A stretch of 32,000 nt of DNA. Origin: Candidatus Helarchaeota archaeon (lineage in GTDB: Archaea; Asgardarchaeota; Lokiarchaeia; Helarchaeales; RDOG01). Location: the NCBI GenBank assembly GCA_019058315.1, contig JAHPZH010000006.1:107052-139051 (forward strand). The letters run 5' to 3'. The notes under the pieces are model-generated. The model was not told the origin of the DNA. It made no database searches and saw only the letters and a list, made by a program, of their open reading frames with translations. Both the position numbers and the translations under genes were made by a program. This document shows, one piece after another, positions 4,314 to 27,176 of the stretch; positions within the stretch are counted from its first letter, which is position 1; each line of letters begins with the position of its first letter.

Positions 4314-5204
4314 CTAATCTTGAGATTCAACAGATCTAGACCATTCATCAATTGCATTGGATAAAATTGAAACCAAATTTTCACGAAAAGTTGGATTTAT
4401 TGCTACCATAGAATAACAAGGAACACCTAATAATCGTTCAATTAATTTTGGTTTCATTGCCCTCGGCATATCTTGCTTATTAGCGATTCCAACCGTATGA
4501 AGTATTCTCTCTTGTTGTTTTTGTCTTATTATTTCTAAATATACCTTTTTTGTTTCCATCACATTTTCAACAGTACTATCTGTCACTAATAAGACAATGT
4601 TAGTTCCACGTAATAAAAAAGTCCATAAAGGAGTATATCTCTCCTGACCAGCAAAATCCCAAATTATTACTTCAAAACGGTCAGATAAACCAGTTAATCT
4701 TTTTACATCAACTGCAATTGTTGGATTATAATCTAATGGAACCTCAGTTCCTCTCATCAAATTAAGCATTGTTGTCTTTCCAACACCACCAAACCCTACA
4801 AGCGCAATTTTGATAATTCCCATTAATATTTTTTCTAGACTTGTATTAAAACCATCAAAAGCACTTGAATCCCTTCCATCCCAACCCAAAGCTTGTATAC
4901 CAAAATCTTCTACAAAAGAATCTCTTGTTCGTTTTAATCTCTCTCTCAATCCTAAGTCATCATCGCCTTCATCTGCACAAAAAACGAATAAATAATCCCT
5001 ATATCTTCCAGGTCCTGCAGTATAAACAAATTTTAAACGTCCAGTAACCACTGATTTAATTTCTCCTTCTGATAAAGACCCTGCAAATGAACTTACAGCA
5101 CTAAGAAAAACTGAGACAAGACTATCATCAACTTTAACGCTGCCATAGGTTTTATGGAATAAAATTGTTCCATCACTTCTGATAATGTAAACATGGTTTA
5201 TCAT
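4314..5204 (-). CDS. Small Ras/Arf-superfamily GTPase fused to an N-terminal longin/roadblock-like domain
   Basis: The C-terminal half has G1 LVGFGGVGKTT, G2 NPTIAVD, G3 WDFAGQERY and G4 NKQD. The N-terminal ~125 aa (MINHVYIIRSDGTILFHKTYG...LFVFCADEGDD) have the alternating beta/alpha pattern of longin/roadblock (MglB-like) domains. Confidence 0.75.
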   Translation of the reverse strand: MINHVYIIRSDGTILFHKTYGSVKVDDSLVSVFLSAVSSFAGSLSEGEIKSVVTGRLKFVYTAGPGRYRDYLFVFCADEGDDDLGLRERLKRTRDSFVEDFGIQALGWDGRDSSAFDGFNTSLEKILMGIIKIALVGFGGVGKTTMLNLMRGTEVPLDYNPTIAVDVKRLTGLSDRFEVIIWDFAGQERYTPLWTFLLRGTNIVLLVTDSTVENVMETKKVYLEIIRQKQQERILHTVGIANKQDMPRAMKPKLIERLLGVPCYSMVAINPTFRENLVSILSNAIDEWSRSVESQD

Positions 5205-8075: not shown

Positions 8076-8789
8076 TTGGGAAAAAGAATACGTGTTCAAA
8101 GAAAAAATAGCCCAACTTTTAAAGCTAATACTCATAGAAGAAAAGGTAAAATTGCCCATCTTTCATTAAATGACCAAAATGTAACTGGTAAAATTATTGA
8201 TCTTGTTCATGAAAGCGGAAGAGGTGCTCCTTTAGCTCTAATAAATTTTGATAATGGAAAAAAGGTGTATATGTTAATTCCTGAAGGAGTATTTATTGGT
8301 CAAAAAATAGAAATAGGGGAAAAAGCTGCAATAAAAGAAGGAAATACATTACCACTAAAAAATATACCCGAAGGAACTCCTGTATTTAATATTGAATTAA
8401 AGCCAGGTGATGGAGGTAAATTAGTTAGAGCAGGTGGTACTTACGCTACGATAATATCTCGATCCTCGACAAAAATAATGATTCGTTTACCTTCTGGAAA
8501 GCTGAAAAGTTTTATTCCGACATGCAGAGCAACGATTGGAATTGTTGCAGGTGGCGGCAAACCCGAAAAACCAATTGTAAAAGCAGGAAAGAAATTTCAT
8601 ATGACAAAGGCTAAGCGGAAAAAATGGCCAATTACACGTGGAGTGGCAATGAATACTGTAGACCATCCTCATGGGGGCGGTGGTCATCAGCATATAGGTA
8701 AAAAAGGATCTACTGTATCTAGAAATGCACCACCAGGAAGAAAGGTAGGACTTATTGCTGCTCGCCGAAGTGGAAGAAAGAAAAAATAA
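8076..8789 (+). CDS. rpl2: Large-subunit ribosomal protein uL2
   Basis: Begins GKRIRVQRKNSPTFKANTHRRKG and carries the conserved VDHPHGGGGHQHIGK block and a basic C-terminus. TTG start. Confidence 0.95.
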   Translation: MGKRIRVQRKNSPTFKANTHRRKGKIAHLSLNDQNVTGKIIDLVHESGRGAPLALINFDNGKKVYMLIPEGVFIGQKIEIGEKAAIKEGNTLPLKNIPEGTPVFNIELKPGDGGKLVRAGGTYATIISRSSTKIMIRLPSGKLKSFIPTCRATIGIVAGGGKPEKPIVKAGKKFHMTKAKRKKWPITRGVAMNTVDHPHGGGGHQHIGKKGSTVSRNAPPGRKVGLIAARRSGRKKK

Positions 8790-10368: not shown

Positions 10369-10550
10369 AAATCAAACCATTTGTATTTTTTTTTAAAATT
10401 CTTTAAATAATCTAAGAAATAATATAAAAACTACCAGTTTAACCCTACAAAATATAATGATAATGAAGTGACTTAAAAGAGAAAGAATTAATAATGATGT
10501 TAATAATAAATTATTAATTTTTACTTAATTGTGTAGAGTTGCTATATAAT

Positions 10551-10913
10551 ATGTCGTATGATGATTTAGTTAACAATATTATGGCGCAAAATCCGTCAAT
10601 TACGGCTATTGCTATCGAAAGTAACGGGGCAATCATTTATCAAACATCTAATTGGGATCTTTCGGGAGATATTTCATCGGTAATTGGTCTATGGAGCTCA
10701 AGTCAAGGTGGTGGATCACTCAATATTCAAGGAATTAAATATATTTGTTTAGAAGTAATCCCTGAACGTCTAATTGCTACAAATGTTCAAGGACAAGGAC
10801 ATATCGTAGCTTTTAAAGGAAATAGTGGGAATCGAATAATAACTTACGTAAGTCCCGATGGCGATGCACGAGGTGCTCTTGCAGTCTTAAACTCAATGGC
10901 TGCTTATATTTAA
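10551..10913 (+). CDS. Profilin (Asgard-type)
   Basis: About 120 aa with the profilin template: ITAIAIESNGAIIYQTSNW, SLNIQGIKYICLEV, NVQGQGHIVAFKG, IITYVSP, GALAVLNSMAAYI. ATG at 10551; the ORF track extends to a TTG at 10539. Confidence 0.75.
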   Translation: MSYDDLVNNIMAQNPSITAIAIESNGAIIYQTSNWDLSGDISSVIGLWSSSQGGGSLNIQGIKYICLEVIPERLIATNVQGQGHIVAFKGNSGNRIITYVSPDGDARGALAVLNSMAAYI

Positions 10914-17251: not shown

Positions 17252-17414
17252 GATTAAATCAAACCCTTTTAATCTTTCTTTATTAACTATATTTTGAGAT
17301 TATTTGTTCCTTATTTATTTTTTTAAAAATATATTTTTTGTGTAATAAGAAAAAAAAGATATTTTAAAGTATTAAGCAAAATAATACAGAATAATCATAT
17401 TTTAATGAGTAAAA

Positions 17415-17540
17415 TGGAGCCTCAGCCGGGGAACGATCCCGGGACCTTTGCCTTTCTGGCAGATATTATTACCAGGGCAACGCTTTACCGTTGAAATTTT
17501 CAGATCGGCATGATTTTTCTACCAACTGAGCTACTGAGGC
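17415..17540 (-). tRNA. tRNA-Thr(GGU) with two introns (about 34 nt in the D-arm, 16 nt at 37/38); CCA encoded
   Basis: The reverse complement reads GCCTCAG-TA-GCTC-AGTTGGTA-GA[~34 nt]GC-G-TTGCC-CTGGTA[16 nt]A-GGCAA-AGGTC-CCGGG-ATCGTTC-CCCGG-CTGAGGC-T-CCA. The anticodon intron (17469-17454) sits in a BHB with central helix CTGG/CCAG and bulges TAA/AAA. Confidence 0.8.
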
Positions 17541-17550
17541 GTAAATTTAA

Positions 17551-17707
17551 TGGTGCGGGGGATGGGAGTTTCACCAAAATATATAATATTTCGGATTCGA
17601 ACCCATGAACTCCTACGAGACAGGATCTTAAGTCCTGCGCCGTTCGGCACGTTTGTATGACCCCATACAAGTTGTCTCTTTTGTTTTACCAGCTTGGCTA
17701 CCCCCGC
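17551..17707 (-). tRNA. tRNA-Leu(UAA) with two introns (about 40 nt in the D-loop, 28 nt in the T-loop); CCA encoded
   Basis: The reverse complement reads GCGGGGG-TA-GCC-AAGCTGGT..[~40 nt]..GGC-G-CAGGA-CTTAAGA-TCCTG-TCTCGTAGGAGTTC (long variable arm)-ATGGG-TTCGAA[28 nt, 17595-17568]T-CCCAT-CCCCCGC-A-CCA. Confidence 0.8.
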
Positions 17708-17817
17708 AAGGGTATTTTATAATATTTATTTTTAGTTTACAAACTATATTCTTTTCTAAATTGATTACTCAATATAATTTTTAATGAGATTTTCATATTT
17801 AAGATTTAGAATTAAAG

Positions 17818-18016
17818 TGCCGAAGGAGGGCTTTCCGTCCAAATTCTAGTAGCTATTTGGTTTCGGACCCTCGATCTCCGGAATACGCGTTTATGGAGCT
17901 AAATCCGATAACTTTATGAGTCCGGCGCGTATTCTTCTTGATCATAATAGATCAAGATTTCTAACCAGGTTTCTCTCCAAGAAAGCTGAGCTTTCCGGGA
18001 CCTAAGCTACTTCGGC
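17818..18016 (-). tRNA. tRNA with CAU anticodon (elongator Met or Ile2), apparently four introns; no encoded CCA; atypical T-loop
   Basis: The reverse complement reads GCCGAAG-TA-GCTTAG[~32 nt]CCTGGTTAGA[~31 nt]GC-G-CCGGA-CTCATA[~31 nt]-TCCGG-AGATC-GAGGG-TCCGAA[30 nt, 17861-17832]G-CCCTC-CTTCGGC-A. That is 199 nt for a tRNA of about 75 nt. The exon borders in the D-arm and anticodon loop are approximate. Confidence 0.55.
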
Positions 18017-18123
18017 TATGTTAATTCTTACAAGCTTTATTAAAATAACCTTAGTTTATAGAGTTTACTATTATTTATATTAAACCTTTTTCTTAAAGAA
18101 ATGAGTAAAACTAATTAAATGAA

Positions 18124-18199
18124 TGGAGCCTCTGGGGGGATTCGAACCCCCGACCATTGGCTTACAAGGCCAGCGCTCTACCAACTGAGCCACAGAGGC
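18124..18199 (-). tRNA. tRNA-Thr(UGU), intron-less, CCA encoded
   Basis: The reverse complement reads GCCTCTG-TG-GCTC-AGTTGGTA-GAGC-G-CTGGC-CTTGTAA-GCCAA-TGGTC-GGGGG-TTCGAAT-CCCCC-CAGAGGC-T-CCA. 76 nt. Confidence 0.95.
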
Positions 18200-18214
18200 A
18201 TTATTTAGATGATA

Positions 18215-18323
18215 TGGTGGGAAAGGTGAGATTTGAACTCACGATCCCGTGGTTTCTTTTTGATCCTTTACAATTTTCGGATATCCCAAGCCACGAATCA
18301 TAGCCAAGCTAGACCACTTTCCC
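18215..18323 (-). tRNA. tRNA-Pro(UGG) with a 31-nt intron at or near 37/38; CCA encoded
   Basis: The reverse complement reads GGGAAAG-TG-GTCT-AGCTTGGCTA-TGAT-T-CGTGG-CTTGGG[31 nt]A-CCACG-GGATC-GTGAG-TTCAAAT-CTCAC-CTTTCCC-A-CCA. Confidence 0.9.
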
Positions 18324-18328
18324 ATATT

Positions 18329-18552
18329 TGGTGGGGTTGAAGGGATTTTCACCGAAATTTCGATTATTTCGGATTTGAACCCTTGATAAGTCCTCTGGAT
18401 AAAACTCGTTCATCCAAACGAGTTACTCCTAGTGGTACGCTCCAAAATTACATCATCTGGAATCAGTATTTTTATTCTATTTTTCTGGAGCCCGTTGTCA
18501 TACCGTGTTTTCTTAAGCTCACAATATGTGAACACATCTAGACCACAACCCC
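18329..18552 (-). tRNA. tRNA-Trp(CCA) with four introns (D-loop ~30 nt, 37/38 61 nt, variable region ~28 nt, T-loop 28 nt); CCA encoded
   Basis: The reverse complement reads GGGGTTG-TG-GTCT-AG[~30 nt]CACGGTA-TGAC-A-ACGGG-CTCCAG[61 nt, 18484-18424]A-CTCGT-[variable region plus ~28 nt]-AAGGG-TTCAAA[28 nt, 18373-18346]T-CCCTT-CAACCCC-A-CCA. The 37/38 and T-loop introns sit in canonical BHBs (CTCC/GGAG and TTCA/TGAA central helices). The other two borders are approximate. Confidence 0.7.
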
Positions 18553-18585
18553 TTTTTATTCAGCTTTTTTAGGAGGTTTTTATGT

Positions 18586-18742
18586 GAGAAAATAATATTT
18601 TACCGTGTTCGGAACGAGAACGGATGGTTCCATTGGCCTATGGCCGACCACGAATGATCAGCTAACTGGATTTCTCGTTGGCTCTCGCACAACAGAAGTT
18701 CCAATAACGCACCAAATGTTTAATTCGGCATATTATTTCCTC
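18586..18742 (-). other. Bulge-helix-bulge processing structure enclosing the permuted 5S
   Basis: A 13-bp outer stem pairs 18742-18730 (GAGGAAATAATAT) with 18598-18586 (ATATTATTTTCTC). The 4-bp central helix is GCCG (18729-18726) / CGGT (18605-18602). The 3-nt bulges are AAT (18725-18723) and AAA (18601-18599). Confidence 0.55.
18600..18723 (-). rRNA. 5S rRNA gene, circularly permuted (3' half encoded upstream of the 5' half, joined by a UUCG loop)
   Basis: 18650->18603 reads TGGTCGGCCATAGGCCAATGGAACCATCCGTTCTCGTTCCGAACACGG, a 5S 5' half. 18723->18655 supplies the 3' half, ending GCTGATCA, which pairs with the TGGTCGGC start across the TTCG at 18654-18651. Rotated, the sequence is about 120 nt with all five 5S helices. 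See the finding for details. Confidence 0.6.
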
Positions 18743-19143
18743 TTTTTCTAAGGCGCCATAAATGTTTTCCGTTTTATTAATCATTTTCCATAATTTAAAT
18801 TTAAACTTCAATTTTTAAAAATTCTAAAGAATTAATTTAAAATTTTTCTCCATTACTTTTAACTTATTCTAATTTGAAATTTTATGTAAGCTATTAAACC
18901 AATAATTTATTATTTTCATCATATAACTTAATGCTTGACGATTTTAAATATTTGGAATAAAATCCAACTGTGTATTATTAACTTAAAATTATTAGTTTCT
19001 TAAAATAAAATAGAAAAATATTCATAAATTGATTTTGTATTCAAAAAATATATCTAAAATTTTTCTAAATTTGTTAAAATTAATAAAATTAGGTGAATTT
19101 TACATCCCTATATAATTCAATCAAATAATAATTGTGATTAAAG

Positions 19144-21027: not shown

Positions 21028-21501
21028 ATGAAAAAAAAATTCTCTTTAGTAGGTTTCTCTGGAACATTTGGACCTCTTCATATTGGACACAAACAACTGT
21101 TTAGAAAAGCATTTGAGGTTAGCGAGAAAGTGATGGTAGGAATTACAGATGATTCCATGACAATAAAAAAAGAGTGTGCCGAATTAATAGCACCATATTC
21201 GGAGAGAAAAGCAGCAATTATAAATTTTTTAAAAGAAGAAGGATATTCAGAAAATGTAATTTTTATAAAATTAACTGATAATTATGGTCCAGCTATTGAG
21301 GACAAAGGGTTAGAAGCATTAATTCTAAGTAAAGAGACTGCCTATATGGGAGATAAAATAAATGAAATTCGAAAAGAACGAAATTTGAAACCTTTAGATT
21401 ATGTCACTGTAGATTTAATTCTTGCAAAAGATGGAAAACGCATTTCTTCAACCCGAATTAGAAAAAAAGAGATAGATCCTGATGGAAATGTTTTAGAGTG
21501 A
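21028..21501 (+). CDS. coaD: Archaeal-type phosphopantetheine adenylyltransferase (cytidylyltransferase fold)
   Basis: GTFGPLHIGHKQL (HxGH) near the N-terminus and ISSTRIR near the C-terminus. 157 aa, with the layout of archaeal PPAT (COG1019-type). Confidence 0.75.
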   Translation: MKKKFSLVGFSGTFGPLHIGHKQLFRKAFEVSEKVMVGITDDSMTIKKECAELIAPYSERKAAIINFLKEEGYSENVIFIKLTDNYGPAIEDKGLEALILSKETAYMGDKINEIRKERNLKPLDYVTVDLILAKDGKRISSTRIRKKEIDPDGNVLE

Positions 21502-21560
21502 AGTTTTAATGTTATTTTTTATTATTCAATGTATTGAATTTTTAATATAGTTGAAATTAA

Positions 21561-23108
21561 ATGTCTAAAAATCTTATAGCAGTATCAGAAGCTGAAATAA
21601 CAATCCTTAAAAGTTTGAAAAAACTCGGAGGAAAAGCTAGTCCCGAACAGATTGCTGACCATGCTAATTTACCTTTAATTAAAGTTAAATCAAGTAAATC
21701 CTTTCTTTGGGATAAAGGATTAATAGATTTTAAAGATTCGGAGATAATCAATTATTACGCAACTAATGAGGGAGTTAATTATGCAATTAGTGATTTACCT
21801 GAAATTCAAATAATTAATTTTCTAAAAAATAATCCCAAATCTAATATACAAAGTATGAATAAAAAAATAGAAAGGCAAATTCTCAATATTGGGATAAAAT
21901 GGGCAAAGAAAAAAAAATGGATCTCAACAATTAAGGAAGATAATGAAACTAAATTTGTTCTTACAAAATCAGGGAAAAAAATTAACCTACCTCTCGAATC
22001 AAAAATATTAAAAATCTTTTCATCAGCTGAGATTAGTCACACTGAAGAATCTTTAATGGATGCATTTCCAAGTTTGAAAACAAATATATCGCCTCTTACA
22101 GAATTGAAAAAAAGAAATCTAATTAAATCTAAAAAGAAAGTTAAATCTATTTTCATAATTAAAGATTTCAATTTCAATGATTTAACTACTAAACAAATAA
22201 CAAAATTAACTAGAGATGATATATTAAGCGGTTCTTGGAAATCTGCAAAAATAAAACCATATAATATTTCTAGTTCACCTCCCGTAATTTATCCTGGAAA
22301 GAAACAACCCTATTTAGAATTACTCGATGAAGTTCGTGAAATACTTGTTGGAATGGGCTTTCAAGAAGAAATTGGCCCTATTGTAGAGGCAGAATTCTTC
22401 AATTTTGATGCATTATTTCAAGCTCAAGATCATCCTGCACGTGAAATTCATGACTCTTATATTCTAAAATTTCCCCAATTTGCAAATCTTAAAAGGAATT
22501 CTTATATAACAAATGTAGAACAAACGCATGTTGATGGTTGGGAAACTGGATCAATTGGTTGGGGGTCATTTGATTTTGAATTGTCTATGAGATTAATTCT
22601 TCGTACACAAACTACTGCTGTTTCAATTAGAAAGCTTATTGAAGTTAATGAACCTCCTATCCGCATGTTTTGTCTTGATAAAGTATTTAGACCTGATGTC
22701 TTGGATGCAAAGCATGCTGTTGAATTTCACCAACTTGAAGGAATAGTTCTTGGTGAAAATTTAAATTTAAGACAATTATTAGGTGTTCTTTCACAATTTG
22801 GAAAAGAATTAGGGTTTGAAGATATTAAATTTAAACCTGGGTATTTCCCATTTACTTGCCCTAGTGTAGAAGCTTTTGTTAAGCACCCAAAGCTTGGATG
22901 GATTGAAATTCTCGGCAGTGGTCTATTTCGTCCCGAGGTTTTGATCCCACTGGGTGTTGATTATCCCAAAGTTCAATGCATCGCATTTGGAATCGGAATT
23001 GGTCGTTTAGCAATGATTAGACTAGGTTTAGATGATATCAGAGAGCTTCATTCTCAGAATTTGAATTATTTACGAAATACATCAGTAGTAATTTCGAAAA
23101 AAATGTGA
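21561..23108 (+). CDS. pheS: Phenylalanine--tRNA ligase alpha subunit
   Basis: Class II motifs FRPDVLDAKHAVEFHQLEG and AFGIGIGRLAMIRLG. The long N-terminal winged-helix region is typical of archaeal/eukaryotic PheS. Confidence 0.92.
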   Translation: MSKNLIAVSEAEITILKSLKKLGGKASPEQIADHANLPLIKVKSSKSFLWDKGLIDFKDSEIINYYATNEGVNYAISDLPEIQIINFLKNNPKSNIQSMNKKIERQILNIGIKWAKKKKWISTIKEDNETKFVLTKSGKKINLPLESKILKIFSSAEISHTEESLMDAFPSLKTNISPLTELKKRNLIKSKKKVKSIFIIKDFNFNDLTTKQITKLTRDDILSGSWKSAKIKPYNISSSPPVIYPGKKQPYLELLDEVREILVGMGFQEEIGPIVEAEFFNFDALFQAQDHPAREIHDSYILKFPQFANLKRNSYITNVEQTHVDGWETGSIGWGSFDFELSMRLILRTQTTAVSIRKLIEVNEPPIRMFCLDKVFRPDVLDAKHAVEFHQLEGIVLGENLNLRQLLGVLSQFGKELGFEDIKFKPGYFPFTCPSVEAFVKHPKLGWIEILGSGLFRPEVLIPLGVDYPKVQCIAFGIGIGRLAMIRLGLDDIRELHSQNLNYLRNTSVVISKKM

Positions 23109-23218
23109 ATTTTTAAGTCCAGCTTAAGAATAATATTTGTCTACATCTACACTTTAAAAAACATATTTTTTATTTTTCATAACATTAATTATGAGAATTT
23201 TAAACAAAAACTTAATTT

Positions 23219-25423
23219 TTGGTGAAAATTATTAAAATTGAATCATTAAAGATCCCAGAATCAGTAAAAAATATTTTAAAACAGGAAAAATATATTGAGC
23301 TTTACCCTCCTCAAGCAGAAGCGATAAAAAAGGGAGTGCTAAATGGAAGAAATTTAGTTCTTGCAATACCAACTGCATCTGGTAAAACTCTAATTTCTGA
23401 GTTAGCTATGTTAAAATCCATAATAGAAAAAAATGGAAAGGCAGTTTATCTAGTTCCATTACGTGCTCTAGCAAATGAAAAATATGAAAGTTTTAAAAAA
23501 TGGGAAAAAATAGGTGTGACGGTGAATATTTCCACTAGTGATTATGATAATAAAGACCCATGGCTAAAAAAATATCAATTAATCATAAGCACAAACGAAA
23601 AATTTGATTCTTTGATAAGACATCAAGTAAAATGGATTAATGATATAACTGTATTTGTCTTTGATGAAGTTCATTTAATGAATGACCCTCAACGAGGACC
23701 TACTTTAGAAATTTTAATTACGACGATAATGCAATTTGTTAAAAATGCACAAATTATTGCTCTTAGTGCTACAGTACAAAATGCAGAACAAATTGCTGAA
23801 TGGCTGAATGCATCAGTTGTCATTAGTGATTGGCGCCCAGTTAAATTAAATGAGGGAGTATATTTCGATGATTCTATTTATTTTTCGGATAAACAAGTAA
23901 AATTATCAAAGATTTATTCAGATCCTATTGTTGATATAGTAGTTGATACGATTAAAAATAAAAAACAAGCTTTAATATTCACAGATACGAGACGTTCTGC
24001 TGCTGGAATAGCAAACAGAATTTCAAAATATATTCTTAAATATTTGAAAATATCAGATCGAAGGGCGCTAGAATCAATCGCAAATCAAATTTTATCTATA
24101 GGAGAGAAGACCAAGATTCGCCAAAAATTAGCTGATCTAATCATTAAAGGCGTAGCATTTCACCATGCTGGTCTTATTTCAGGACAGCGAAAACTAATTG
24201 AAACATCTTTCAAAGATAATAAAATAAAAATTATATGTGCCACTCCGACTTTGGCAGCAGGGGTTAATTTACCTGCCCGAAGAGTCGTTATTTCTAAATA
24301 TACTAGGTTTGATGTTAATTTTGGCCCACAACCTATTCCAGTTTTAGAATATAAACAATTTGCGGGAAGAGCTGGAAGACCAAAATATGACACAGAAGGC
24401 GAGTCAATATTGATTTCTAATACCGAAAATGAAAAAGAGTTTCTAATGAATAATTACATATTAGGTGAACCAGAACCAATTAATTCCAGATTAATACAAG
24501 AATCTGTTTTGAGAACTCATATATTAGCATTAATAGCACGAGGTACAGGACTAGCAAAAAAAGATATTGAAAATTTTATAGAAACTACTTTTTTGGCACA
24601 TCAAAGTATTTTTGATGATTTTTATTCAATAATAGATAATGTGATTGATTTTTTAATGGATGAAGAATTAATTGAACAAAAAAATAATCTTCTTATTCCT
24701 ACAAAATTAGGAAAAAGAATTGCTCAGTTATATATTGACCCCAAAAGTGGAATAATTTTAAAAAATGCGATTTTAAATCTTAATGATGCCAATATTAATA
24801 CAGTAGGAATTTTACACTTAATAACGCGAACCGAGGATATTCCTAAGTTATATTTGAGAAAAAAGGATTATGAAGAATTAAAACCATTCATTATTAAACA
24901 CTTGGACGACTTTTTCTTTGATATTGAAGAAAATGAATGGATTTTTTCTGAAATGAAAGTTGCTTCTTTAATATATCTATGGATAAACGAAGTAGATGAA
25001 AATACAATAATATCTAAGTTTGGTATTGGTTCAGGAGACATCCATAGATACGTTGAATTATATGATTGGTTAATTTATGCTTTTCATGAAATTGCTAAAT
25101 TATATAAAAGAACGAAATTGAAAGAATTTGTGAAAAATTTACAAATGAGAATAAAATATGGTATTAAAGAAGAATTATTAGAATTAGTTAGTTTAAAAGG
25201 GATAGGTAGGGTTAGAGCCAGAATTCTTAATAATCATGGATATACTTCAATTGACTTATTGAAAAAAGCTAAAGAGAAAGATCTAATGAGATTAGAATAT
25301 TTTGGTCCTGAATTAATAAAATCCATTTATGAACAAATAGGAGTGACTATTGGGAAATTAACATCAAGTTCTACACAAGATAAACTTAAATTAAACCAAA
25401 AAAGCATTGATGACTATATTTAA
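23219..25423 (+). CDS. hel308: Hel308/Hjm (Ski2-like) DNA helicase
   Basis: Motif I AIPTASGKT, motif II VFDEVH, motif III LSAT, then HHAGL and motif VI QFAGRAGRP. The C-terminal helix-hairpin-helix is LVSLKGIGRVRARIL. TTG/GTG start region. Confidence 0.85.
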   Translation: MVKIIKIESLKIPESVKNILKQEKYIELYPPQAEAIKKGVLNGRNLVLAIPTASGKTLISELAMLKSIIEKNGKAVYLVPLRALANEKYESFKKWEKIGVTVNISTSDYDNKDPWLKKYQLIISTNEKFDSLIRHQVKWINDITVFVFDEVHLMNDPQRGPTLEILITTIMQFVKNAQIIALSATVQNAEQIAEWLNASVVISDWRPVKLNEGVYFDDSIYFSDKQVKLSKIYSDPIVDIVVDTIKNKKQALIFTDTRRSAAGIANRISKYILKYLKISDRRALESIANQILSIGEKTKIRQKLADLIIKGVAFHHAGLISGQRKLIETSFKDNKIKIICATPTLAAGVNLPARRVVISKYTRFDVNFGPQPIPVLEYKQFAGRAGRPKYDTEGESILISNTENEKEFLMNNYILGEPEPINSRLIQESVLRTHILALIARGTGLAKKDIENFIETTFLAHQSIFDDFYSIIDNVIDFLMDEELIEQKNNLLIPTKLGKRIAQLYIDPKSGIILKNAILNLNDANINTVGILHLITRTEDIPKLYLRKKDYEELKPFIIKHLDDFFFDIEENEWIFSEMKVASLIYLWINEVDENTIISKFGIGSGDIHRYVELYDWLIYAFHEIAKLYKRTKLKEFVKNLQMRIKYGIKEELLELVSLKGIGRVRARILNNHGYTSIDLLKKAKEKDLMRLEYFGPELIKSIYEQIGVTIGKLTSSSTQDKLKLNQKSIDDYI

Positions 25424-25514
25424 AAAAAATAAATTCCAATTTAATAGAGATTTTAACAATGTTCTTAGCCAATTCAGTTTTTTACTAATAATGAATAAAT
25501 TTGGAGTATAAGGT

Positions 25515-27176
25515 ATGCCAACTTTAAATTTCAGTTATAATGATTTATGTAAATTAATAGGAAAGAAAATTGAAAAAAAACAGCTTGAAGAGCTAATATT
25601 ATTAAATAAAGGTGAGGTAGAGGACTGGATAGATGATGAAATGACTGTAGAGGTAACGAGTGATAGAGTAGATTTATTATCTGTTGAAGGTATTGCAAGA
25701 GCTATAAAAGGTTTTTTAGAAATCGAATTGGGCATACCCAAATATCCAGTTCAAAAATCAAATGTAAAACTTTCAGTTGATGAAGCGGTAAATCAAGTAA
25801 GACCATTTGTCGTAAGTGGAATAATAGAAGATGTAGAATTAACAGATACAAGTGTTGCTCAACTCATGCAAATGCAGGAAAAATTACATACAACTCATTG
25901 CCGTAATCGTCGGAAAGCATCGATAGGAGTACATGATTTGGATAAAATTAAACCTCCAATTACATACACAGCTAAAAAACCAGAAGATATATATTTTATT
26001 CCGTTACAAGAATCTAAAGCTATGGATGGAAATGAAATCCTTCGCAAAGTTAAAAAAGGGATTGAATATGCACCCCTCATCCAAAATTCTCCAGTATATC
26101 CACTAATTATAGATTCTGAAGAAACTATTCTTTCACTTCCTCCTATTATAAATTCTGTAGATACAGCGGTAGATCCAGATACAAGAAATTTATTTTTTGA
26201 AATTACTTGTTTGGATGAGCAAGTAGCACTTATTGCATTGAATGTTCTTCTATGTAATATAAGTGAAAGAAGAGGAACTATAAAAACAGTTGAAGTAGAA
26301 TATCATGATGGTCGAATTATAAATCTTCCAGATTTAACCCCTCAAACAAAGACTCTCCACTTAGATTATACAAATCAAGTCCTTGGTTTAAAATTGAATT
26401 TAAAAGAACTTAATAAATTGATTAAAAAGTCTAGAATGGAAGCAAATCCAAAGGATAAAAATACTGTCGAAGTTTTAGTACCATCTTTTAGGTCAAATAT
26501 TCTTCATGAAATTGATTTAATCGAGGATATTTCAATTGCATATGGCTATAATAAGTTTATAACCGATTTACCCCAAGTCATTACAATAGGTAAAGAAAGT
26601 AAAAAAGCGATATTTACTCGAAAAATCAGGGAATTAATGGTCGGTTTTGGATTTCAAGAAGTATCTAATTATATAATGACCAACAAGGAATATTTATTTT
26701 CAAATATGAATTTAAAAGAAGATGAAATAGTAGAAATCGCAAATCCAGTCAGTACAACCTATTCTGTACTTAGAAATAGTCTCATCCCTAGTATGCTAAA
26801 TTTCCTGAAAAATAATTTACATGCTGTATATCCTCAAAAAACCTTCGAAACTGGTGATGTAGTTATTGTTGATAAAAAATCTCAAACAAAAACTAATACT
26901 TTAAGCAGATTATGTGCAGCTATTACGAGTTTTTCAATTTCCTTTGAAAATATTCAAGCAATATTATTTTCACTTTTTCAAAATCTAGACTTAAAAAACA
27001 TAAAATTAGAATCCGTCGAACATAATAGTTTCATTCAAGGGCGCGTTGCCGAAATTCATGTAAATAATAAAAAAATTGGAATAATTGGTGAAATTTCCAT
27101 ACCCGTACTTAAAAATTTCGCCTTAGAAAATCCTGTTGCATTATTTGAAATTAATTTAGATAATTTATTGAGTTAA
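25515..27176 (+). CDS. pheT: Phenylalanine--tRNA ligase beta subunit (archaeal type)
   Basis: 553 aa. The N-terminus MPTLNFSYNDLCKLIGK, the B3/4-like block DRVDLLSVEGIARA and the class-II-like C-terminal core fit PheT. A GGAG lies 9 nt upstream of the ATG. Confidence 0.9.
   Translation: MPTLNFSYNDLCKLIGKKIEKKQLEELILLNKGEVEDWIDDEMTVEVTSDRVDLLSVEGIARAIKGFLEIELGIPKYPVQKSNVKLSVDEAVNQVRPFVVSGIIEDVELTDTSVAQLMQMQEKLHTTHCRNRRKASIGVHDLDKIKPPITYTAKKPEDIYFIPLQESKAMDGNEILRKVKKGIEYAPLIQNSPVYPLIIDSEETILSLPPIINSVDTAVDPDTRNLFFEITCLDEQVALIALNVLLCNISERRGTIKTVEVEYHDGRIINLPDLTPQTKTLHLDYTNQVLGLKLNLKELNKLIKKSRMEANPKDKNTVEVLVPSFRSNILHEIDLIEDISIAYGYNKFITDLPQVITIGKESKKAIFTRKIRELMVGFGFQEVSNYIMTNKEYLFSNMNLKEDEIVEIANPVSTTYSVLRNSLIPSMLNFLKNNLHAVYPQKTFETGDVVIVDKKSQTKTNTLSRLCAAITSFSISFENIQAILFSLFQNLDLKNIKLESVEHNSFIQGRVAEIHVNNKKIGIIGEISIPVLKNFALENPVALFEINLDNLLS

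Follow-up and report, generated by a model that had tools for sequence, protein, structure and literature searches.

A 5S rRNA gene in circularly permuted order with a predicted bulge-helix-bulge enclosure in Asgard archaea

5S rRNA occurs universally, and recognising its gene is generally taken to be trivial. We analyzed a 32,000-nucleotide stretch of DNA from a Candidatus Helarchaeota archaeon (GCA_019058315.1, contig JAHPZH010000006.1, positions 107,052 to 139,051; hereafter, the window), in which Rfam at the gathering threshold reported two tRNAs only and no 5S rRNA over the whole sequence. An earlier note, made from the letters of the window, had proposed that the minus strand at 18742 to 18586 holds a circularly permuted 5S rRNA gene enclosed by a canonical bulge-helix-bulge (BHB) motif. 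The locus raises two questions: is this a 5S rRNA gene, and how could an RNA transcribed in this order yield a continuous 5S rRNA?

All strings and coordinates that had been quoted for the locus are present in the sequence. Read along the minus strand, on which all elements of the locus lie, it consists of the 3′ part of a 5S rRNA, a UUCG tetraloop and the 5′ part of a 5S rRNA. The 3′ part (18655-18723, 69 nt) holds the rest of a linker (UUAAA), the 3′ strand of helix II, loop A, helix V, loop E, helix IV, loop D and the 3′ strand of helix I (GCUGAUCA, 18662-18655). The UUCG tetraloop (18651-18654) covalently caps helix I, where an ordinary 5S rRNA has its two ends. The 5′ part (18600-18650, 51 nt) runs from the 5′ strand of helix I (UGGUCGGC) through CAUAG of loop A, the 5′ strand of helix II, loop B and helix III with loop C (CCGAAC) to the first three nucleotides of the linker, UAA. 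Helix I, formed by GCUGAUCA and UGGUCGGC, has 8 bp, including two G·U pairs.

These parts are enclosed by a 13-bp outer stem, a 4-bp central helix and two 3-nt bulges, all as the earlier note described. The clamping outer stem pairs GAGGAAAUAAUAU (18730-18742) with AUAUUAUUUUCUC (18586-18598) and contains one G·U pair. In the central helix, GCCG (18726-18729) pairs with CGGU (18602-18605), of which CGG doubles as the 3′ strand of 5S helix III. The bulges, AAU on the 5′ strand (18723-18725) and AAA on the 3′ strand (18599-18601), each sit 3′ of their own strand of the central helix. By the standard rule, a BHB is cut after the second bulge nucleotide, and this geometry predicts cleavage between 18724 and 18723 and between 18600 and 18599. 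After excision and ligation, the product (18600-18723) would be 124 nt, the length that had been claimed for it, with the junction ...CACGGUAA|UUAAAC.... It would consist of the 120-nt 5S rRNA and the 4-nt UUCG cap exactly, with no spacer remaining.

A TATA-like A/T-rich element, CAUUUAUGG (18756-18764, minus strand), which we read from the sequence as a putative archaeal promoter, lies ~14-22 nt upstream of the outer stem. Comparable A/T-rich boxes are found 20-35 nt upstream of the stem in other lineages that carry a permuted 5S (below). The placement of this element suggests that the transcript would begin at or just before the outer stem, as a short independent unit. Two other explanations of the locus were rejected: a tandem 5S array, as there is no 5′ part upstream and no 3′ part downstream, and a protein-coding region, as no open reading frame (ORF) of 80 or more amino acids occurs in 17252-19143.

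With relaxed thresholds, the Rfam 5S model RF00001 matched the native order with 21.6 bits (E 0.068), below its 38-bit gathering score, and only model positions 1 to ~50, the 5′ part, were truly aligned. The 5′ part alone was a significant 3′-truncated match (25 bits, E 6e-4, model positions 6-51), in agreement with the claim that a 5S 5′ half begins at 18650. To score both parts jointly, we built a covariance model, R1, from four colinear archaeal 5S genes that were permuted in silico (cut at CGGAA|GU, helix I capped with UUCG) and annotated with the textbook 5S pairs. The training set comprised three Methanomethylicia 5S genes and locus L117 (Rfam 74-89 bits) and contained no natural permuted sequence; an alignment of 10 sequences, bacterial 5S among them, was dropped as a training set because MAFFT misaligned helices II, IV and V. 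R1 matched 18724 to 18601 over all 125 positions with 48.1 bits (E 2e-10), as expected if the 3′ half precedes the 5′ half and the two are joined through UUCG and an 8-bp helix I. The earlier note had proposed comparing the rotated with the native order under RF00001; recast with the model rotated instead of the sequence, this comparison gives 21.6 bits with RF00001 and 48.1 with R1. Since R1 scored the 5′ part alone at 26.8 bits, the upstream 3′ part adds ~21 bits, mostly from helices I and II, whose strands are divided between the two parts. The 3′ part by itself (18655-18723/18724) gave no 5S match with either RF00001 or R1.

When rotated, the 5S sequence of the window could be aligned with colinear archaeal 5S over its full length, and 27 columns were invariant. 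CAUAG, CCGAAC and the CGG-AAGUUAAG linker fell at the correct spacing, and no gaps were needed through these motifs. The junction CGGUAA|UUAAAC lay on CGGAAGUUAAGC of colinear 5S, ungapped and in register, so that cutting and ligating would restore CGG-AAGUUAAG-helix II as proposed. The window copy forms 32 of the 38 pairs of the 5S fold. Single-sequence minimum free energy (MFE) folding recovered neither the 5S fold nor the BHB and was not used as evidence. Together with the conservation and covariation described below, the model-based test strongly supports the assignment of the locus as a 5S rRNA gene in circularly permuted order.

The earlier note had pointed to orthologous loci in related Asgard genomes as a place to look. 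In total, we recovered ~17 distinct versions of the permuted 5S, in contigs labelled Hel-, Loki-, Baldr-, Odin- and Njordarchaeota (all taxon labels are those of the sequence depositors) and in unlabelled metagenome contigs. A genome-collection scan used a 5′-half pattern with a CCATAG-to-CCG spacing of 15 nt; the spacing in the window lineage is 14, so its own genome and close relatives could not match. Its matches were three Methanomethylicia 5S genes in colinear order and two Baldrarchaeota metagenome-assembled genomes (MAGs) with a permuted 5S, in which the 3′ part, UUCG and the 5′ part are flanked by GGUGCGGCAUCC/GGAUGCCGCACC, with CGUG/CACG as the central helix and AAA/GAA as bulges. A metagenome scan with a permuted-order pattern returned ~75 ordinary 5S genes, mostly bacterial, and at least 10 distinct permuted lineages; as this pattern required TTCG, the loop conservation among its matches is not independent.

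We also fetched loci through the neighbouring protein, without an RNA pattern. The window encodes a DUF1512 protein (PF07431/PF23542; 19144-20292, plus strand) divergently from the 5S locus and ~400 nt from the stem, whose best named homologues are in MAGs labelled Helarchaeota (95, 86 and 83% identity). In all seven loci fetched in this way, a permuted 5S with stem and BHB lies no more than 2 kb from the DUF1512 gene. They are L119 (95% DUF1512 identity; GCA_013375355.1), L120 (86%), L121 (64%), L122 (63%; labelled Lokiarchaeota, GCA_011365055.1), L125 (56%; labelled Helarchaeota), L123 (53%; labelled Odinarchaeia) and L124, which has a DUF1512 homologue and is labelled Njordarchaeota. R1 scored them at 46-82 bits, and RF00001 matched none of the seven.

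Across the permuted family, R1 scores ranged from 46 to 102 bits. In a 20-locus panel, Rfam found every colinear 5S (65-89 bits) and no 5S in any permuted locus. With a simple BHB finder, every lineage yielded an outer stem (6-16 bp) together with a pair of 3-nt bulges around a 4-bp helix; the excised length was 119-127 nt. For two of the unlabelled contigs, neighbouring genes point to Asgard archaea: the C25 peptidase beside L081 has only Asgard-named matches, and the CysRS beside L076 is nearest to sequences named Njordarchaeales and to others with the generic label 'Thermoproteota'. The permuted 5S has a GC content of 61-69% in L076/L106, L005 and L123, and the surroundings are at 37-40% in L076, L106 and L005; high-GC structural RNAs in lower-GC contigs are the usual signature of thermophily.

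If the locus encodes a folded 5S rRNA, its pairs should be maintained by compensatory change. We aligned 15 natural permuted genes to R1, bearing in mind that a model-fitted alignment favours the structure. In this set, 90.7% of cells were paired, compared to 34-45% when partners were slid by 1-3 columns and 66% in shuffles. Double-sided changes occurred in 29 of 40 pairs and in all five helices, which extends the claim that the rotated sequence forms the 5S helices from the window copy to the family. Helix I, the capped helix, was 99% paired, with compensatory changes at 7 of its 9 pairs. An independent MAFFT/RNAalifold run recovered helices II-V, with 20 compensatory pairs. The cap is itself conserved: among the nine loci found without requiring the loop, it was UUCG in seven and UGCG in two, mostly on a C-G closing pair.

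The enclosing elements are also maintained. The outer stems are only ~29% identical between lineages, but 9.3 of 10 pairs form within a lineage, compared to 4.1 of 10 when strands are swapped across lineages. The central helix forms all four pairs in each of 11 sequences tabulated, and also in the seven loci fetched through DUF1512; its variable position covaries (U-A, C-G or G·U). For example, L120 has GUCG/CGGC where the window has GCCG/CGGU, and both changes preserve pairing. When the window leader was shuffled, a BHB of equal or better quality arose in 0 of 2000 trials, so the motif outdoes its shuffled controls. For 11 of 14 loci, leader shuffles reached the observed quality in 0-3 of 2000 trials; the results were weaker for L040 (15/2000), L081 (58/2000) and L097 (204/2000). 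As in all lineages examined, the window motif has two 3-nt bulges on opposite strands around a 4-bp helix. The 3-4-3 geometry of the motif stands, but the label 'canonical' goes too far: as no inner helix is evident, the BHB is best described as of the relaxed hBH/BHL type rather than full hBHBh′.

Comparison of the predicted cut sites was informative as to ligation. Counted from the helix III CGG, the cut comes after 1 nt in the Baldr, Odin and Njord lineages and L040, after 2 nt in L118, L032, L069, L076, L081 and L097, and after 3 nt in the window clade, L065 and L125. At its 5′ end, the excised piece compensates by moving the opposite way, such that the joined CGG-to-helix II linker is 8 nt (AAGUYAAG-like) in 18 of 18 sequences analysed in this manner. 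Of the 17 distinct versions, 16 have this length, and L108 is the sole exception. Since the cut site wanders while the joined linker is fixed, what selection acts on is the joined sequence rather than where the ends fall. These compensating cut sites are the strongest sequence-level argument that the ends would be ligated.

Where did the permuted gene come from? The DUF1512 gene serves as a syntenic marker of the ancestral 5S locus. Using tblastn, we found DUF1512 directly beside colinear 5S genes in Methanomethylicia (L002-L004), L117 and L126, and beside permuted 5S genes in the Baldr and Njord lineages, L065 and the Hel/Loki clade; the relative orientation of DUF1512 and 5S is inverted in the Hel/Loki clade and L065. 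L126, labelled Bathyarchaeia, served as a control: its 5S is colinear (RF00001, 70.6 bits) and lies directly upstream of DUF1512, and R1 gave split matches only. As colinear and permuted 5S occupy the same DUF1512-linked position, the position is that of the ancestral 5S locus, at which the permuted gene replaced a colinear one. The permutation may plausibly have begun with a tandem duplication whose outer halves were later lost.

Adjacency of DUF1512 and 5S, colinear or permuted, was seen in Methanomethylicia, Bathyarchaeia-like, Baldr-, Njord-, Odin-, Hel- and Lokiarchaeota contigs (among L002-L005, L065, L117 and L119-L126). This linkage suggests a functional tie between the uncharacterised DUF1512 protein and 5S rRNA; as it spans TACK and Asgard archaea, the protein may act on 5S. 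The window (21028-27176, plus strand) and the Odin-labelled L123 (1-5088) also have in common a neighbourhood of DUF1512, a small ORF, a CTP_transf_like gene and genes for PheRS alpha/beta.

A model that accommodates these data is that the locus is a functional 5S gene whose order is restored by BHB cleavage and ligation, most likely with a circular 5S rRNA as the mature form; we consider this reading likely. In this model, a short independent transcript would start at the outer stem and would carry, in order, the 3′ two-thirds of 5S (from the middle of the helix III-II linker to the 3′ strand of helix I), the UNCG loop and the 5′ third (from the 5′ strand of helix I to the CGG of helix III). 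Leader and trailer would pair as the 13-bp stem, and the leader GCCG, which mimics the 5′ strand of helix III, would displace the helix III partner of CGG(U), giving the 4-bp helix between two 3-nt bulges. Because the CGG is common to the central helix and helix III, the BHB and helix III would be mutually exclusive conformers. The resulting 3-4-3 geometry would be a substrate of the archaeal tRNA-splicing endonuclease (EndA), whose cuts after the second nucleotide of each bulge would free the 124-nt piece. RtcB-type ligation of the 2′,3′-cyclic phosphate and 5′-OH ends would then rebuild the conserved CGG-8 nt-helix II segment and allow helix III to form. The predicted mature form is a covalently closed circular 5S rRNA. 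We favor the circle as the product because a stable UNCG loop closes helix I from the outset and excision would leave no spacer behind.

Several points weigh against this interpretation. The evidence is at the level of DNA throughout, from which we infer the transcription start, EndA cleavage, RtcB ligation and final topology. Recognition of the 3′ part of the AT-rich window copy leans much on its pairing with the 5′ part and on the orthologues. No inner helix (h′) is evident beside the 5′-strand bulge, as read from the sequence, and formation of the BHB requires the base of helix III to be melted: the BHB-constrained fold has -49.3 kcal/mol versus -51.6 kcal/mol for the MFE fold, 2.3 higher. 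The proximal stems of L097 and L081 are short and individually weak; both loci have extended distal stems. L108 does not fit the scheme, as its best BHB (UGCC/GGCA) encloses 157 nt, including an extra 33 nt. The search for a colinear 5S in this genome covered 32-53 kb, and MAGs of Borr-, Jord- and Kariarchaeum are reported to have ordinary 5S genes, so the trait is not universal in Asgard archaea. As to L108 itself, the permuted 5S lies at ~510-700 on the minus strand (R1, 50.7 bits), and the additional 33 nt fold as a perfect hairpin, AAAUUCGG-CGAA-CCGAAUUU, adjoining the junction; the hairpin may be a nested insert or reflect a second processing step.

What would the RNA become after cleavage? 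The earlier note had allowed for both a circular or permuted 5S in the ribosome and opening at the UUCG loop. From the sequence, we rank a circular mature 5S first; re-opening of the circle at its loop comes second, and a nicked RNA that is never ligated comes third. According to the second possibility, which we regard as unlikely, the circle is only an intermediate that a nuclease would cut within the UNCG loop or beside it, giving a linear 5S with its ends at helix I. Such re-opening would leave just 0-4 extra nucleotides. However, a 4-nt UNCG was present in all nine loci found without requiring it, which resembles a selected structural cap more than a removable variable spacer, and we know of no enzyme that measures 5S ends as RNase P and tRNase Z measure tRNA ends. 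Precedents exist on both sides: the permuted tRNA genes of Cyanidioschyzon merolae mature by cleavage and re-ligation to yield linear tRNAs (as cited in PMC4267664), and circular pre-16S/23S rRNAs are re-linearised in several archaea (background given in PMC12918454), while circular 23S can be retained in archaeal ribosomes (PMC12918454). Were the BHB cut but the ends left unligated, the ribosome would hold a permuted 5S that is linear, with helix I capped and a nick separating helix III from helix II. The 5S of brown-algal mitochondria is indeed permuted in the final RNA and not in the gene alone (PMC4267664), and the linker nucleotides would be kept for protein binding even if unligated. We nonetheless consider this outcome improbable: the cut wanders by 1-3 nt while the summed linker holds at 8 nt, as expected if the joined sequence matters, and archaeal BHB-excised RNAs with apposed 2′,3′-cyclic phosphate and 5′-OH ends (tRNA introns, pre-16S/23S) are as a rule circularised by RtcB.

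Alternatively, the locus could be a non-functional relic of rearrangement, or else an accessory copy, with a normal colinear 5S elsewhere supplying the ribosome. The limited part of the genome inspected and the ordinary 5S genes of some Asgard MAGs would allow this, but the ancestral position and the covariation argue strongly against a silent relic: the gene sits at the DUF1512-linked 5S locus, and compensatory changes occur in every helix as well as the BHB. Moreover, the arrangement is kept across lineages in which the neighbouring protein is just 53-64% identical, an A/T-rich box lies upstream of each copy, and Rfam detected no colinear 5S in any of ~20 contig stretches that carry the permuted gene. 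We therefore regard a relic as very improbable. Returning to the favored reading, a functional permuted gene with a circular product, its broadest form is that several Asgard classes (Hel-, Loki-, Baldr-, Odin- and Njord-labelled) lack a colinear 5S and carry circular 5S in their ribosomes, made by the splicing endonuclease and RtcB, and that the permutation arose once, in place, at the DUF1512-linked locus; on this broader proposal, we are evenly divided.

The permuted 5S is followed by tRNA genes. A multi-intron tRNA-Trp(CCA) gene (18330-18552, minus strand; gene model read from the sequence) lies ~33 nt downstream, and a tRNA-like sequence, GGGGUCGUGGUCUAGA..., also follows the permuted 5S in L119, L120 and L122. 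tRNA-Trp(CCA) is the first of a same-strand cluster of about six tRNA genes (17415-18552), most with between one and three inserts, which sit at non-canonical positions in the D-arm, anticodon and T-arm; ARAGORN detects one gene in this cluster and Rfam two. Similar T-arm inserts occur in two different tRNAs, at ~18372-18347 and 17594-17570. The earlier note had also reported the BHB module in the D-arm insert of tRNA-Thr(GGU). The strings are there: the insert (17482-17516, minus strand) reads AUGCCGA...ACGGUAAA, with ATGCCGA at 17511-17505 and ACGGTAAA at 17491-17484, and has the same central-helix strands and AAA bulge as the 5S BHB. A role for them as the BHB at the intron's splice sites was not confirmed, as no consistent splice-site BHB could be derived from the GCCG/CGGU+AAA strings; the resemblance is either coincidence or a lead.

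Elsewhere, the window (GC ~28%) encodes a profilin-like protein (10539-10913, plus strand; Pfam E 1.3e-4, just under the cutoff) and an Arf/Ras-family small GTPase of 296 aa (4314-5204, minus strand), both eukaryotic signature proteins typical of Asgard archaea. Along with the Helarchaeota labels of the nearest named DUF1512 homologues, these features fit an Asgard archaeon of the Lokiarchaeia/Helarchaeales group. The gene for ribosomal protein uL2 (8076-8789, plus strand) stands alone, outside any ribosomal protein operon, and its flanks are unrelated, with a radical SAM/B12-binding gene on the other strand.

If our reading is correct, RF00001-based annotation silently misses 5S in these Asgard lineages, which affects the calling of 'high-quality' MAGs wherever a 5S is required; a permuted covariance model would be an immediate fix. 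An essential rRNA would depend on the tRNA-splicing endonuclease and a ligase to become continuous, and a circular 5S may be present in ribosomes of archaea closely related to eukaryotes, which would extend the recent findings on circular 23S.

How does this gene compare to known systems? An archaeal permuted or BHB-processed 5S was not found in the openly accessible literature searched, in agreement with the earlier note, whose author model knew of none. With ordinary archaeal 5S (RF00001), the gene has in common CAUAG, CCGAAC, the CGG-8 nt linker, archaeal-type loops D and E, five helices and the DUF1512 neighbour; it differs in that the order of its parts is rotated and its native order scores below the RF00001 gathering score. 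Permuted tRNA genes are reportedly known in archaea from Thermofilum, as described by Chan, Cozen and Lowe in 2011, and were found in Cyanidioschyzon merolae by Soma et al. in 2007 (cited in PMC4267664). As here, the 3′ half lies upstream in a single transcript, leader and trailer form a BHB, and cleavage and ligation restore the sequence. There, however, the RNA is a tRNA, the natural ends are separated by a removable spacer and the circle is an intermediate. In the permuted 5S, a conserved 4-nt UNCG cap takes the place of the spacer, for which reason the circle is probably the end product, and the trait, unlike that of permuted tRNA genes, spans several classes of a superphylum.

Archaeal pre-16S and pre-23S rRNAs also have a leader-trailer processing stem with a BHB, from which EndA and a ligase give circular rRNA, and according to a 2026 paper, this excision and circularisation applies to 16S and 23S 'but not 5S' rRNAs (PMC12918454). 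That a circular or permuted rRNA can work in a ribosome is illustrated by the permuted 23S of Pyrococcus (PMC7758197) and by circular 23S in mature ribosomes (PMC12918454). The pre-16S/23S genes are colinear, with the permutation or circle arising at the RNA level only and spacer left in the circle, whereas here the gene itself is permuted, no spacer would remain, and ligation would be needed to restore an internal conserved segment. The permuted mitochondrial 5S of brown algae, mtPerm-5S (Valach et al., 2014; PMC4267664), likewise has helix I as a closed hairpin with its ends elsewhere and is missed by standard 5S models. Its ends lie in the three-way junction at loop A, between the alpha and gamma domains, and it is a linear permuted RNA of an organelle, with no BHB and no ligation; in the archaeal gene, in contrast, the break separates helix III from helix II, and the BHB around it predicts that the ends are rejoined. 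Thus, the themes of permuted genes, BHB processing and circular rRNA, each with precedents, are combined here in a new RNA class and a new clade.

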